Source of the DNA: Escherichia phage vB_EcoS-CHD5UKE2
Reading direction: 5' to 3' (one strand)
Sequence record: NC_073059.1
DNA length: 45,243 nucleotides
In this document: positions 20,200 through 24,419 of the stretch, piece by piece
How positions within the stretch are numbered: position 1 is the stretch's first letter
Layout: every line of letters starts with the position of its first letter
Notes under the pieces: model-generated
Seen by the model: the letters and a program-made list of their open reading frames with translations, nothing else
Database searches by the model: none
Told to the model about the DNA's origin: nothing
Made by a program: the position numbers and the translations under genes

Positions 20200-20649
20200 T
20201 CATTTAGCCCACTGGCGAATAGTAGAACGGTTGATTCCGGTCATCTCAGCTATCTGATTCCATGATAGCCCTTCCTCGCGTAGCCGCTTAACGACCGGTG
20301 CATACTTCTCTCGGGCGAGGGTCATCTCGCGTGCCGCTTCTTCTGATTTGCGCACTGCCTCGATAGCGCCGCCTTTCAACAGGTCAAGCTCGGCTTGCAT
20401 ATTGTCTCGCTCGTCCGCAAGGCCGTTATACGACTGCATGTAAAAGGATAACTTGTCCATAAGGGCCGTGATTATGTCAGATGCCGTGGTCTTATCCATC
20501 GCCAGAATATCGGCAGCTTGCTCGGCGTGCGGGATCGGGTCTGCGCAAAAATCGCCGAAGGTGATAGTCTTTCCGTCGTCCCAGGAAAGGGCGATTTGGT
20601 GAGTCCATTTCGTATGGTTCCAGCGATTTAAGGTTTCGTTAGTGCTCAT
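20200..20649 (-). CDS. HTH transcriptional regulator (putative)
   Basis: 149 aa; C-terminal HTH-like LSWNQIAEMTGINRSTIRQWAK; first gene from a strong divergent promoter. Confidence 0.5.
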   Translation of the reverse strand: MSTNETLNRWNHTKWTHQIALSWDDGKTITFGDFCADPIPHAEQAADILAMDKTTASDIITALMDKLSFYMQSYNGLADERDNMQAELDLLKGGAIEAVRKSEEAAREMTLAREKYAPVVKRLREEGLSWNQIAEMTGINRSTIRQWAK

Positions 20650-20682
20650 TGTCTTGTCCCGTGTGTTAGTGGTGTAGGCCGC

Positions 20683-20711
20683 ATACTATGCCTAAAAATA
20701 AACGGTGTCAA
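20683..20711 (-). promoter_or_regulatory. Sigma70-like promoter for the regulator/primase operon
   Basis: Minus-strand reading TTGACA-N17-TAGTAT (near-consensus). Confidence 0.6.
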
Positions 20712-20827
20712 CTCCTTTTGTATATTGAACCGGGCGCGCACGCGTGTAATAATAATTCCCGTCTCATTGTCTCTTATTGGTTAGCGCCGTCGCATTTTGC
20801 CTCGGCGCTTTTTTTTGAAATTAGTTG

Positions 20828-20857
20828 TTGACACCCCGCCTGCAACCAATCTATTAT
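20828..20857 (+). promoter_or_regulatory. Sigma70-like early promoter for the plus-strand replication block
   Basis: -35 TTGACA (20828..20833), 18-bp spacer containing TGCAACCAAT, -10 TATTAT (20852..20857). Confidence 0.6.
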
Positions 20858-20917
20858 TCACCTCGTTGACGGGGCATACCGCACCGAACACTTAAATTAA
20901 CCAATCGGAGATATACC

Positions 20918-21433
20918 ATGTTTGAGCAAATCGTAAACCTGATCACACGCGGCGTTGTAGCACTGGAAACCATCGCTAAGCATTATGAAACTGCGGGCGC
21001 TGCCGTTGATAAACAGGAAGCGAAGAAAGCCCCGGCGAAGGGCAAGGCGAAAGAAGTAGTCGAAGATGACGATGCTGAAGACGAAGCACCGGCAAAGACC
21101 AAAAAAGCGCCCGCAAAGGGCAAGGCTAAGAAAGAAGCCGTAGAAGAAGACGACGACGCGGACGAGGAAGAAGCCCCGGCGAAATCTAAGAAAGCACCGG
21201 CGAAAGGTAAAGGCAAGAAAGATGCCGATCTGCTGAAAGAAATGCGCGACGAAATCAAGCAGTATGCCGCTATTATTGCGGGCGGTGATGACGACGACGC
21301 AAACGACGAATTTGATGATCTGCTGGAAGCGTTCGAAATTAAATCCGTTGCCAAGCTGGAAGATGACGACGTCGAAGACTTCCACAAAGATTTAAAAGAA
21401 ATCGTAGAAACGTATTTCGAATTAGAAGATTAA
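20918..21433 (+). CDS. Early protein with alternating Lys-rich (KKAPAKGKAKK) and acidic repeats
   Basis: RBS GGAG 7 nt before ATG; three APAKxKKAPAKGKxKK units separated by Asp/Glu runs; intrinsic terminator immediately downstream. Confidence 0.6.
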   Translation: MFEQIVNLITRGVVALETIAKHYETAGAAVDKQEAKKAPAKGKAKEVVEDDDAEDEAPAKTKKAPAKGKAKKEAVEEDDDADEEEAPAKSKKAPAKGKGKKDADLLKEMRDEIKQYAAIIAGGDDDDANDEFDDLLEAFEIKSVAKLEDDDVEDFHKDLKEIVETYFELED

Positions 21434-21441
21434 TATTATCC

Positions 21442-21468
21442 GGCCCGCTAATCTGCGGGCCTATTTTT
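21442..21468 (+). terminator. Rho-independent terminator after the first early gene
   Basis: Hairpin ggcccgc-taatct-gcgggcc followed by TATTTTT. Confidence 0.6.
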
Positions 21469-21481
21469 AGAGGACGAGACA

Positions 21482-21733
21482 ATGGCACGCTTCACGCTAA
21501 TCGAGGCGGTGGATTCACGCGACCAGCGCCCTTATTATTGGCTATTCGAACGTACCGGCAACTTTAAATCACGCGTTGCCGTAATAGATAAACGCCGCGA
21601 TAACCCCGCGCAAATTAAGCGCACCACATTTACTAACCCCGACTTCTATATTTGGGCGGACTCCAATCTGGAATATGTTCGCTTTGCCGTATCGTCGGAA
21701 GAAAAAGTAATTGACCGTTGGGAGACAAAATAA
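21482..21733 (+). CDS. Hypothetical protein
   Basis: 83 aa; RBS GAGGACGAG before ATG. Confidence 0.5.
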   Translation: MARFTLIEAVDSRDQRPYYWLFERTGNFKSRVAVIDKRRDNPAQIKRTTFTNPDFYIWADSNLEYVRFAVSSEEKVIDRWETK

Positions 21734-21921
21734 TGACTATATTCTTTGTTTTATTTCGCTGCCGTATTACCGGCGACGAGCAACCAGAAATTGTTATGAA
21801 TCAAAACTGGAATTGTTGCTGGACGCAAGCCCGCGGACTGGCATCAACCATGAACGAAGCCGCGAAGCGCGCCAATGTTAAACACGATTATTACATTGCT
21901 CAATTTTCAAGGGTGGAATAA
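21733..21921 (+). CDS. Hypothetical small protein
   Basis: ATG 21733 with RBS GGAGAC (ORF-track start 21718 is not ATG); 62 aa. Confidence 0.4.
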   Translation: MTIFFVLFRCRITGDEQPEIVMNQNWNCCWTQARGLASTMNEAAKRANVKHDYYIAQFSRVE

Positions 21922-23321
21922 TGGCTATTAAACCGAAGCGCAAAACGCAATCCGGCAGCAATACGGAGCACTCATTACTTGGGCCATCGGGATCTAAAAA
22001 ATGGATGGGGTGTCCTGCCGCCCTGGTAGTCGAAAAAGGTATCCCGAATGAGTCCGGGCAAGCGGCGATTAACGGTACGAGTATGCACACCGTATCTGAA
22101 GTAGTGTTAAACCGCATCATTGCCGGTGAGAAGAAGCTATCCGCGAAGACGTACAAAGGGTGCTACGTCGAGAACGAAGGTAAGGGACCGGTAAAGGCCC
22201 ACCCGAAAGCACCGAAAGGCGGCGTGCTGGTCAACGACGATATGGTGAAACAGTGCGATGCATACATCGACCACTGGCGACCGCTCCTTGAAGTGGCGGA
22301 GTTTGTACAGCTTGAAATGCGCGCCGATCTCACCCGCATCTTGCATCCAGGCTTCGAGATAGACGGCAACAAGGTGAAGACGTTCGGAACTGCCGATATG
22401 GTAATGGTCATGAAGAAGACCGACGGCACGTACATGCTGATTGTTGGCGACCTGAAGACCGGGCGACATAAGGTCGAGGCGAAAGAAAACAAACAGCTTA
22501 TGTTGTACGCGCTGGGCCTGCTGCGCAAGCTGCAAACCATGTACGACATTACAACCGTTCGCCTGGTAATCTTCCAGCCGTATTGCGGCGGGGCGTCGGA
22601 GTGGGATATTACCGTGGAAGCGCTGGAGATATTCGCGAAGTTTGCATCCAAGCGTGCTATTGACGCACTGGACGCGTATTCCCGCGGCAAGAAGGGGCTT
22701 ACCCGTGCCGACTTCCGACCGAGCGTTGATGCCTGTCAGTGGTGTAGATTTGCGGATCAGTGTAGTGCCCGCGCTAAGGCCGCCATCGACACGATGACCC
22801 CACCAACGGCAACAGACGACGACCTGGCGGACGAAGCACCGAAGGCTACCGATCGCGAAGCCCGGAAAGCGGCACGACGTGCGAAGCGTGGCAAGAAAGA
22901 AGAAGAAGCACCAGGCGCTATGAGCGCGGCGGAACTGCGCAAGGCATATGAAGGTCTTGACGCAATGCGCCAGCACATCAAGGCTATCGAGTCCGCGGTA
23001 TTCAAGGCCGTAATGGCGGGCGATGGCGAATCGCTGGGCCTCAAGATGGTTGCCGGTAAGGAAGGTAATCGCAAGTGGGCGGACGAAAGCGAAGTGATTG
23101 AAGTCTTCACGAAGGCCCGGATCAAGCGCGATGTGATGTACAAAGAAACATTGCTCAGTCCTACCGATGCCGAGAAGGTATTGAAGGACGAGAAACCGAA
23201 AGTGTGGGCGAAGTTGTGTGATAAAATCACGCGCGCCCCAGCTAAACCGGTATTGGCACCAATCGACGACCCGCGCCCCGCGTGGTCTGAAGCTACTGAT
23301 GAGGACTTAAGTAATGAATAA
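21921..23321 (+). CDS. PD-(D/E)xK exonuclease, Cas4/RecB-like
   Basis: 466 aa; nuclease core motifs GTADMVMV and GDLKTG...QLMLYALGL; Cys cluster CQWCRFADQC; Lys/Arg-rich C-terminal region. Confidence 0.55.
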   Translation: MAIKPKRKTQSGSNTEHSLLGPSGSKKWMGCPAALVVEKGIPNESGQAAINGTSMHTVSEVVLNRIIAGEKKLSAKTYKGCYVENEGKGPVKAHPKAPKGGVLVNDDMVKQCDAYIDHWRPLLEVAEFVQLEMRADLTRILHPGFEIDGNKVKTFGTADMVMVMKKTDGTYMLIVGDLKTGRHKVEAKENKQLMLYALGLLRKLQTMYDITTVRLVIFQPYCGGASEWDITVEALEIFAKFASKRAIDALDAYSRGKKGLTRADFRPSVDACQWCRFADQCSARAKAAIDTMTPPTATDDDLADEAPKATDREARKAARRAKRGKKEEEAPGAMSAAELRKAYEGLDAMRQHIKAIESAVFKAVMAGDGESLGLKMVAGKEGNRKWADESEVIEVFTKARIKRDVMYKETLLSPTDAEKVLKDEKPKVWAKLCDKITRAPAKPVLAPIDDPRPAWSEATDEDLSNE

Positions 23322-23556
23322 GGTGTTTGCATTCGTATTGATGATTATGCTCGGTGCGCTGGGCTTTATCCTGCATTGCGTGCAGGGCGTGTTAATGGTG
23401 GCCTGGATGATTCGCCATCCATCCCGCTGGCTGGACGATGGCTACAGTGACGTTGCCGTAGACTGGGTGTTAAAGCATAAAGACCGCCCGCCGTTAAGCT
23501 GGATCGAGAACGCCTCCGACTACGTGATCCGAAATCTTTTTAATAAAAGTGCTTGA
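23314..23556 (+). CDS. Small membrane protein
   Basis: 80 aa with two hydrophobic helices; start overlaps the exonuclease stop. Confidence 0.45.
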   Translation: MNKVFAFVLMIMLGALGFILHCVQGVLMVAWMIRHPSRWLDDGYSDVAVDWVLKHKDRPPLSWIENASDYVIRNLFNKSA

Positions 23557-23581
23557 CCGCTTAGGCGCAACCAAGTAAATT
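23553..23581 (+). promoter_or_regulatory. Sigma70-like promoter upstream of the SSB gene
   Basis: TTGACC-N17-TAAATT with two direct GCAACCAAG boxes (23567..23575, 23583..23591). Confidence 0.45.
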
Positions 23582-23645: not shown

Positions 23646-24377
23646 ATGGCTAAAGTCAACCTGAAAAACGTGCGCGTATGCTTCCTGAAAATTTGGGAAC
23701 GTGATACCCCTAAACAGGATGGACAAAAACCGGCATACCGTGCCGTGATTCTTCTTGATAAAGAAGATCCGCAGGTGGACAAAGTGGAAGCGGCAGCGCG
23801 CGCAGTGCTCACCGACAAGCTGAAATCCGAGAAGAACGCCGATAAGTGGATGGACCGCCACTACGCCCAGGATTCTAAGGAATGCGCAGTTCGCGACGGT
23901 GATGAGCGCGACGAAGTAACCGAAGAGTTTGAAGGCATGCTGTACATCAACGCCAAATCGTTCAAACAGCCTAACATCCAAACGTCACTGGGCGAGAAGC
24001 AGACCGAACAGGGTCTGACTATCGACGGCGACGAGATCGAAGGCCAGGAAATCTATTCCGGTTGTTATTGCAACGTGTCCCTGGATATTTGGGCGTGGAA
24101 CAACACCAACGGCAAAGGTCTAGGTGCGGGTTTGATGGGTCTTCGCTTCCGTGGTGATGGTGATTCCTTCGGTGGCGGCGGGTCTTCTTGTTCCGATGAC
24201 GACCTGGGCGACGATGACGAAGATGAAGCACCGCGCAAGGCTAAGAAGTCCAAACGTCGTGATGACGATGACGAAGACGAGGAAGACGAAAAACCTCGCA
24301 AGCGTCGCAAGTCCCGCGATGACGAAGATGAGGACGACGACGAAGACGAAGCACCACGTAAACGTCGCCGCCGTTAA
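23646..24377 (+). CDS. ssDNA-binding protein (T7 gp2.5-like / DUF2815-like), with alternating acidic/basic C-terminal repeat tail
   Basis: N-terminus MAKVNLKNVRVCF and YINAKS resemble the gp2.5-like family as I recall it; C-terminal 60 aa are three DDEDE...APRKRRK units; RBS GAGGAAATG. Confidence 0.45.
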   Translation: MAKVNLKNVRVCFLKIWERDTPKQDGQKPAYRAVILLDKEDPQVDKVEAAARAVLTDKLKSEKNADKWMDRHYAQDSKECAVRDGDERDEVTEEFEGMLYINAKSFKQPNIQTSLGEKQTEQGLTIDGDEIEGQEIYSGCYCNVSLDIWAWNNTNGKGLGAGLMGLRFRGDGDSFGGGGSSCSDDDLGDDDEDEAPRKAKKSKRRDDDDEDEEDEKPRKRRKSRDDEDEDDDEDEAPRKRRRR

Positions 24378-24395: not shown

Positions 24396-24419
24396 AAGCC
24401 CGCTTATTGCGGGCTTTTT
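24396..24419 (+). terminator. Rho-independent terminator after the SSB gene
   Basis: Hairpin aagcccgc-ttatt-gcgggctt followed by a T-tract. Confidence 0.6.

Follow-up and report, generated by a model that had tools for sequence, protein, structure and literature searches.

In bacteriophage T7, the acidic C-terminal tails of gp2.5 and gp4 bind the polymerase, and classic Gp2.5-type tails are purely acidic. Phage inhibitors of RecBCD are placed beside recombination genes, lambda gam lying beside bet and exo and T7 gene 5.9 beside gene 6, and complexes of Gam and of gp5.9 with RecBCD have been solved. [quoted passage not shown] Here we describe a gene that accompanies this module in Escherichia phage vB_EcoS-CHD5UKE2 (NC_073059.1), the 45,243 nucleotides (nt) of which were analyzed and are called the window below. 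Its product alternates Lys-rich repeats with runs of Asp and Glu and ends in an acidic domain. We propose, tentatively, that this protein is an electrostatic accessory of the phage replication and recombination proteins.

Linkage to the replication module

The DUF2800 exonuclease gene lies directly 3' of the gene, with zero to two small open reading frames (ORFs) between them, in every lineage examined, and it is followed, where they are present, by the genes for the Gp2.5-like SSB and then PolA. The lineages comprised the window, a divergent Dhillonvirus-type contig, a 38%-identical relative, Jerseyvirus Ent1, phiEap-2, Hafnia TS33, Escherichia K-02 and four metagenomic contigs. Linkage to the module held at 12 of 12 loci of recognizable members, and candidate remote members occupied the equivalent slot. 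The upstream neighbors in the four metagenomic contigs, which are unrelated, were a UvrD helicase gene, a 164-amino-acid ORF ending a DEAD-helicase operon, a DNA methylase gene and, in the last, the end of the contig. Given that the linkage persists whatever lies upstream, the gene is a companion of the replication/recombination module and not a free-standing early gene. The original prediction had taken it for a self-contained single-gene transcription unit, a description that finds no support in a gene that stands mid-operon behind helicase or methylase genes in some contigs and stays with replication genes in every lineage. P0105, a distant analogue that shares the architecture, is separated from DUF2800 downstream by the same short interval of two ORFs or fewer, being the second ORF before it, and lies opposite a primase gene of another family.

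The window is that of a Dhillonvirus, an Escherichia coli siphophage like HK578, EP23 and SO-1: positions 20600 to 21800 match 153 phage records at 80 to 96% identity, nearly all of them Escherichia or Shigella Dhillonviruses. Homologues of the protein were found by tblastn in 153 phage records, compared with 156 that carry the DNA polymerase gene, which places it in the core gene set of the genus. Its carriers include the BASEL phages TheodorHerzl and Oekolampad and phage SM_S22, in which it is CDS0050. The family also occurs in metagenomic phages and, by tblastn, in 251 records of Guernseyvirinae and relatives (among them Jerseyvirus, Kagunavirus and phiEap-2), and an exhaustive profile search of 1.8 billion representatives returned 47 clusters. 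The protein matches PHROG 3127 over its whole length (E = 2.6e-48; residues 1 to 171 on profile positions 1 to 178 of 178), as did 32 of 32 diverse relatives tested; this family has no assigned function, and membership therefore explains nothing. Searches of Pfam and NCBIfam with the protein returned no family.

Weak family-profile matches were found at the equivalent slot in three further phages, P2559Y, DoCa6 and phiFL4A. [quoted passage not shown] Remote homology of Enterococcus phiFL4A gp14 was not supported by hhalign (probability 6%), and this protein is kept as tentative, as is Corynebacterium SamW gp39, which is alike in architecture only. Two existing labels were also considered. The name "13.88 kDa late protein" in Guernseyvirinae records lacks support and traces to no experiment in the papers found, and "prohead core protein," from the annotation of UDS3lw, was rejected on the location in the replication module and the absence of the protein from those listed for phage EE09 lysates.

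Abundance and selection

Proteomics of whole cells infected with the Dhillonvirus EE09 detected no more than four phage proteins at 25 min (PMC10673088). These include CDS56, the homologue of the gene described here, and CDS61, the Gp2.5-like SSB, and CDS56 is not listed among the proteins that phage lysates yielded (PMC10673088). The detection of CDS56 fits a strong promoter coupled to a terminator and indicates a stoichiometric rather than a catalytic role. Among 15 Dhillonviruses, the ratio of nonsynonymous to synonymous substitution rates (dN/dS) was 0.09 over the first 30 codons and 0.04 over the last 66, so that both ends are under purifying selection. From these values, and from the detection of the homologue by mass spectrometry in infected cells, we conclude that the ORF is real, coding and under selection.

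Two ORFs of 162 and 134 amino acids run antisense to the gene (Table 1). They were rejected as genes, since the GAN/AAR codon repeats, rich in purines, give rise to them as a by-product. AT skew also reaches its highest positive value in the window (+0.24) along this stretch.

A charge-segregated spacer between two constrained modules

AlphaFold2, run with the family alignment, predicts three parts (Table 1): an N-terminal amphipathic helix (FEQIVNLITRGVVALETIAKHYE), a disordered spacer in which charge is segregated, and an acidic C-terminal domain of three helices (the C-domain). The N-terminal helix is not confidently docked on the C-domain. Its family consensus is approximately M-L-[ED]-K-F-L-A-L-L-E-R-F-V-V-A-H-E-L-I-A-A, also given as approximately MLDKFLALLERFVVAHELIAA. 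A beta-clamp-binding motif (QxxLxF-like) considered for the N terminus was rejected because it is not conserved across the family.

The spacer is built from three basic repeats, KKAPAKGKAKE (residues 36 to 46), KKAPAKGKAKK (62 to 72) and KKAPAKGKGKK (91 to 101), with the consensus KKAPAKGK(A/G)K(E/K), between which lie two acidic runs, EVVEDDDAEDE (46 to 56) and EAVEEDDDADEEE (73 to 85). The ORF thus bears out the three KKAPAKGKAKK-type repeats, the Asp/Glu runs and the acidic C-terminal half that had been read from the sequence at the outset. At the DNA level there are three diverged copies of about 50 nt each, spaced 78 and 87 nt apart and 62 to 76% identical; Tandem Repeats Finder reported nothing at the gene at its thresholds, the repeat being too diverged. 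Charge is strongly segregated over residues 31 to 102 (z = 6.8), and this is not an effect of composition, because none of 2,000 composition-preserving shuffles reached the observed local charge asymmetry. Across the family the spacer is near-neutral (median net charge, +1), and its charge is blocky (z > 3) in 24 of 39 members.

Across 99 Dhillonvirus-type cluster representatives, the identity of both end modules exceeds 90%. In these the number of basic blocks, which differs even between near-identical phages, is one in 3 cases, two in 41 and three in 55, and the spacer ranges from 15 to 79 residues. Because the spacer varies this much between constrained ends, the repeats are an evolvable and partly dispensable element. 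K100 and K101 are invariant in the Dhillonvirus-type alignment, and a basic block directly precedes the C-domain in all members.

The last 69 residues (103 to 171) hold 26 Asp/Glu and 7 Lys/Arg, for a net charge of -19 and an isoelectric point (pI) of 4.05; the full-length protein has a net charge of -21 and a pI of 4.49. Across the family (n = 39) the C-domain is acidic, with net charges from -4 to -21 and a median of -13. The domain is conserved across 40 diverse sequences and contains an invariant G-G-D-D-D-D loop. An EF-hand reading of this loop was rejected by inspection, as the consensus positions do not fit, and a structure search found no significant neighbor of the C-domain. In three relatives of 208 to 212 amino acids (P0113, P0117 and P0121) the three-helix domain is tandemly duplicated, which suggests that it acts as a binding unit that adds valence.

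Covariation with the SSB tail

The window's Gp2.5-like SSB closes with SDDDLGDDDEDE-APRKAKKSKRR-DDDDEDEEDE-KPRKRRKSR-DDEDEDDDEDE-APRKRRRR, a tail of 68 residues in which acidic and Arg/Lys blocks strictly alternate and the last residues are RKRRRR. Its blockiness (z = 10.1, a value reached by none of 2,000 shuffles) represents a stronger segregation of charge than that of the spacer described above. Junctions of the form DE-(A/K)P-(A/R)K are common to the SSB tail and the gene product, and the linker of the exonuclease carries similar charge blocks.

We compared the two proteins across 13 hand-collected loci, a sample in which kinship is ignored and which amounts to roughly 4 independent lineages with an acidic C-domain versus 3 to 5 with a near-neutral one. 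At eight loci the net charge of the C-domain is -9 or lower, and the SSB tails of all eight have 6 to 13 Lys/Arg among their last 30 residues. The C-domain is near-neutral at the other five, and there all five SSB tails are of the classic acidic kind, with at most 2 Lys/Arg. This sequence pattern suggests that the acidic C-domain and the basic SSB extension co-evolve, and it makes the Gp2.5-like SSB a candidate electrostatic partner of the gene product.

A motif, [ST]-D-[DE]-D-L, is common to four sites in the replication proteins of the window: one in the primase-helicase, two in the exonuclease and one in the SSB. Such tips also occur in phiEap-2, Ent1 and the loci L022, L028 and L004. By analogy, the motif looks like a common docking motif resembling the acidic tails of SSB and gp2.5.

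Promoter, leader and terminator

With a score of 11/12, the sigma-70-type promoter upstream of the gene has no equal on either strand anywhere in the window, in keeping with the original prediction that the strongest promoter precedes this ORF. An identical promoter is kept in phage welsh, and the promoter region is conserved in an alignment with phage WF5505. The assignment of the gene to the early class would follow from the promoter type and the module only. Further upstream, directly before the -35 box, a GC hairpin (-16.7 kcal/mol, z = -2.8) and a run of eight T residues resemble a terminator; the element is annotated as one in WF5505 and is conserved in phage welsh. It probably insulates the main promoter or ends a short upstream transcript.

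That hairpin begins about 30 nt after a weaker promoter-like site, TTGAAC-17-AATAAT with an extended TG, which scores 9/12 in the window and 10/12 in phage welsh. The arrangement could yield a transcript of about 60 nt or serve as an insulator; it matched no Rfam family, and its equivalent in EE09 is annotated as a 36-amino-acid coding sequence (CDS), EE09_55.

The block around the Shine-Dalgarno sequence, AACCAATCGGAGATATACCATG, is conserved in the Dhillonvirus alignment. In most Dhillonviruses the main promoter is set apart from the ribosome-binding site of the gene by an insertion of about 133 nt (phage welsh, locus L003, 1660 to 1835, versus 20858 to 20906 of the window); the window and WF5505-type phages lack it. 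The insertion is open in frame, and the database gene models of 207 to 239 amino acids that begin MQDANWRG stem from it. The long 5' leader that results is not unusually structured (z = +1.1) and has no credible Rfam match, and an Rfam scan of the whole window returned no match either.

Downstream, the gene is followed by a hairpin with a 7-bp all-GC stem and a 6-nt loop (-17.2 kcal/mol, z = -2.9; none of 200 shuffles folded as well) followed by a T tract. The intrinsic terminator that had been predicted here from the sequence was thus upheld, and it appears functionally conserved. It is independently annotated in phage WF5505, and Jerseyvirus Ent1 also has an annotated terminator. Among 13 scanned loci, 9 have a GC hairpin 3' of the gene, with stems that are unrelated in sequence; a T-rich tail was called for six of the hairpins, and those of L006, Ent1 and L028 were read by eye, with no tail called. 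In phage welsh a 37-amino-acid ORF lies between the gene and the terminator (L003, 2378 to 2491), and the same terminator is retained downstream of the insert. Some other Dhillonviruses share this ORF insertion.

No other sigma-70-like promoter was found on the + strand between the gene and the exonuclease (21433 to 21921). Because of this, and because the T tract, TATTTTT, is interrupted, we infer that the hairpin is more likely a leaky attenuator that gives a high ratio of the gene product to the downstream enzymes.

The SSB gene has a promoter-like site of its own and a strong terminator before the polymerase gene (Table 1). Published escape mutations in the SSB promoter are consistent with that site. 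Both proteins found to be abundant in EE09-infected cells, the homologue of this gene product and the SSB, are bracketed by a terminator each.

Back-to-back with the main promoter, a second promoter faces a divergent gene for a 149-amino-acid protein with a C-terminal HTH_23 (helix-turn-helix) motif. Records label this protein variously as a transposase or as "nuclease inhibitor gamma"; it is more likely a regulator of the divergent promoter pair. Jerseyvirus Ent1 and several metagenomic contigs have a small helix-turn-helix gene at the equivalent position.

Table 1. Positions of the gene, its predicted protein modules and neighboring features in the window (aa, amino acids; pLDDT, predicted local distance difference test)
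Feature	Position	Strand	Details
Primase-helicase C terminus, SATDDDLKD*	about 17951	-	[ST]-D-[DE]-D-L motif
HTH_23 protein gene	20200-20649	-	149 aa, divergent
Promoter of HTH_23 gene	20683-20711	-	TTGACA-17-TAGTAT, 10/12
Upstream promoter-like site with hairpin and T8	20725-20817	+	TTGAAC-17-AATAAT
Upstream GC hairpin and T8 run	20783-20817 (hairpin 20783-20809)	+	Terminator-like, directly before -35 box
Sigma-70-type promoter	20828-20857 (-35 20828-20833, -10 20852-20857)	+	TTGACA-18 nt-TATTAT, 11/12
Shine-Dalgarno GGAG	20907-20910	+	7 nt before ATG; read from sequence
CDS described here	20918-21433	+	171 aa, ATG start; PHROG 3127 member
N-terminal amphipathic helix	20921-20989	+	aa 2-24; pLDDT 50-72; hydrophobic moment 0.49
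Disordered charge-segregated spacer	20990-21208	+	aa 25-97; pLDDT < 50
Basic blocks of spacer	21023-21055, 21101-21133, 21188-21220	+	Third extends to aa 101, past spacer interval
Acidic blocks of spacer	21053-21085, 21134-21172	+	Separate the basic blocks
Acidic three-helix C-domain	21209-21418	+	aa 98-167; helices 98-122, 126-138, 149-167; pLDDT 81-92
Antisense ORF, rejected as gene	20897-21385	-	162 aa
Antisense ORF, rejected as gene	20983-21387	-	134 aa
Intrinsic terminator / attenuator	21442-21468 (hairpin 21442-21461)	+	GGCCCGC-loop-GCGGGCC, then TATTTTT
DUF2800 / PD-(D/E)XK exonuclease	21921-23321	+	Pfam PF10926, E = 3.8e-67; charged linker
Exonuclease, internal TATDDDLADE	22812-22826	+	TDDDL motif, within 21921-23321
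Exonuclease C terminus, EATDEDLSNE*	23295-23309	+	TDEDL motif, within 21921-23321
SSB promoter-like site	23553-23581	+	
Gp2.5-like SSB (Enc34_ssDNA-bd / DUF2815)	23646-24377	+	Pfam PF10991, E = 1e-31
SSB tail	24171-24374	+	68 residues
SSB, CSDDDLGDDD	24192-24206	+	Just after Gly-rich linker
SSB gene terminator	24396-24416	+	Before polymerase gene

A proposed electrostatic accessory

The reading we favor, while holding it at somewhat less than even confidence, is that the gene product is an abundant, nonenzymatic accessory of the module formed by the DUF2800 exonuclease, the Gp2.5-like SSB, the family A polymerase and the primase-helicase, and that it acts electrostatically. Within the rightward replication operon the gene would stand nearest the promoter, the strongest of sigma-70 type in the genome, and would be transcribed by host RNA polymerase. 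Most transcripts would most likely stop at the hairpin and T tract, with the downstream enzymes relying on read-through, and the product would be made in large excess over those enzymes. With no packing against the remainder of the protein, the N-terminal amphipathic helix probably serves in self-association or inserts into a partner. The spacer, with its Lys-rich and Asp/Glu-rich blocks, may be a multivalent electrostatic tether, free in sequence and length, for DNA and the charged tails of the replisome. The target of the acidic three-helix domain would be a basic surface, most plausibly the Arg/Lys-rich C-terminal extension of the SSB. What we observe is the structure of the gene, its conservation and the selection on it, its synteny, and the abundance and charge pattern of its product; that termination is leaky, what each of the three modules does and which protein is the partner are what we infer.

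An elaboration of this reading, which we consider quite improbable, is that the gene product and the SSB form a multivalent electrostatic network, a condensate-like "replication factory" with a nucleophosmin-like scaffold whose valence is set by the one to three blocks. The acidic domain and blocks would touch the Arg/Lys tail of the SSB, the Lys blocks would touch DNA and the TDDDL tips of the primase-helicase and exonuclease, and the replisome and recombination enzymes of a small siphophage could in this way be concentrated on phage DNA.

Several points weigh against the idea of an electrostatic accessory. Natural variants with only about 15 spacer residues mean that the repeats themselves are not essential. 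The covariation over 13 loci ignores phylogeny and includes two weakly supported remote members, and a lineage-wide tendency to expand purine-rich charged repeats could yield it without any interaction. Read-through at the terminator rests on inference from the absence of a consensus promoter. Finally, adjacency to an exonuclease is typical of inhibitors of the host RecBCD too, and synteny alone does not tell the two readings apart.

Alternative readings

The alternative that survives best, unlikely as we judge it to be, is a DNA-mimic inhibitor of RecBCD or of another end-processing nuclease, one that works in the manner of lambda Gam or T7 gp5.9. Its acidic three-helix domain, possibly as a dimer formed through the N-terminal helix, would fill the DNA site of the nuclease and protect linear or concatemeric phage DNA made by the exonuclease/Gp2.5/PolA machinery. 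A net charge of -19 over 69 residues, a pI of 4.05 and conserved acidic positions fit the composition of a DNA mimic, but the family does not conserve acidity as such, because bona fide or probable members from other lineages (P0159, P2559Y_0025 and DoCa6 gp75) have near-neutral C-domains with net charges of -4 to 0. The gene always adjoins the phage recombination exonuclease, as RecBCD inhibitors do in lambda and T7, and it is strongly expressed, yet RecBCD is a low-copy enzyme that calls for no phage protein of top abundance. The Lys-rich blocks are left unexplained by this alternative, and no solved DNA mimic, Gam, gp5.9 and Ocr included, is similar to the protein in sequence or structure.

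It is distinctly improbable, in our estimate, that the product is a histone H1-like or nucleoid-associated protein that coats or compacts phage or host DNA through its KKAPAKGK repeats. What remains of the histone H1-like character in the original prediction is a likeness in composition: the Lys/Ala/Pro-rich repeats resemble H1 C-terminal and bacterial PAKKA-type tails, but Pfam and NCBIfam searches revealed no linker-histone or other DNA-binding domain, and the sole folded part is the acidic three-helix bundle. The constancy of a basic block before the C-domain, with its invariant K100 and K101, would suit a DNA coat, as would an abundance comparable to that of SSB; the basic blocks otherwise vary freely from one to three, and in many relatives the basic segments are short. 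A simple histone-like coat is unlikely because the whole protein has a net charge of -21, with a spacer that is about neutral and a pI of 4.49, where histone-like proteins would be net basic.

The BASEL Dhillonviruses are described as more sensitive than Queuovirinae to restriction-modification of types I and II (PMC8594841), which, with the gene present in TheodorHerzl and Oekolampad, argues against an effective Ocr-like function; this literature, indirect in that it involves no deletion mutant, does not show type I protection of carrier phages. We see only a slim chance that the gene encodes a stand-alone early anti-restriction or host-takeover protein of the Ocr/ArdA kind, expressed first against restriction-modification or other defenses, as its position had originally been taken to suggest: the best sigma-70 promoter in the window, a terminator of its own, acidity and abundance would suit such a protein, but in other lineages the gene is not first and yet stays with the replication genes, it matches neither Ocr, ArdA nor any Pfam, NCBIfam or Protein Data Bank (PDB) family, and the two small defense-related Dhillonvirus proteins identified by experiment, Ksap1 and anti-Tmn, are encoded by other genes. 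Comparisons with Ocr (PF08684), ArdA (PF07275), Gam, gp5.9, linker histones and solved structures found no similarity in sequence or fold.

The gene for Ksap1, a protein of 74 amino acids, is flanked by those for a methyltransferase and a phosphatase, and anti-Tmn is ORF35, which has a beta-sheet-containing fold and is missing from some Dhillonviruses; identity of the gene described here with either was rejected. So was identity with the trigger of RAZR (portal) or the triggers of Retron-Eco8 and Borvo (SSB and polymerase), which are also other genes.

Significance

A search with the SSB as query found the duf2800-gp2.5-polA module in 871 phage records, and the companion protein described here is conserved, highly expressed and uncharacterized in at least two large groups of enterobacterial phages, or about 400 sequenced genomes. 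Some of the carrier phages are under characterization for phage therapy or biocontrol. If the gene product is a replisome adaptor, it would be a new type of component for T7-type replication, disordered and charge-patterned and adjustable in evolution through its number of repeats; as a nuclease inhibitor it would instead represent a new family of DNA mimics. The analysis also corrects the database labels "prohead core protein" and "13.88 kDa late protein," as well as models of 207 to 239 amino acids that start upstream of the promoter.

Comparison with known systems

Like lambda Gam and T7 gp5.9, the gene product is small, helical, very acidic and encoded beside a recombination exonuclease; these inhibitors lack its long charged spacer and share neither sequence nor fold with it. 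With T7 Ocr and ArdA it has acidity in common, together with high expression, putatively early in its own case, from strong host-type promoters, but there is no homology, and here the gene is a core gene of the replication module in phages that are sensitive to restriction. The low-complexity repeats of the KKAPAKGKAKK type are like those in H1 tails and in AlgP, Hc1 and the tails of mycobacterial HU and Ku. The gene product differs from H1 in having no globular H1 domain or other Pfam-A match, and its basic blocks are balanced one-for-one by acidic ones.

Proteins of the nucleophosmin/nucleolin type offer a parallel in architecture: a terminal association module, disorder in tracts of alternating charge and a small C-terminal three-helix domain. 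There is no homology with these proteins either, and the C-domain here is acidic and not of nucleic-acid-binding character. The acidic-tail network of T7 gp2.5 is comparable in that the window holds the same conserved duf2800-gp2.5-polA module and replisome proteins with acidic tips of the TDDDL type. T7 has no counterpart of the gene product. In the window, Arg/Lys-rich blocks lengthen the SSB tail, and an abundant acidic protein exists alongside it as a separate chain.

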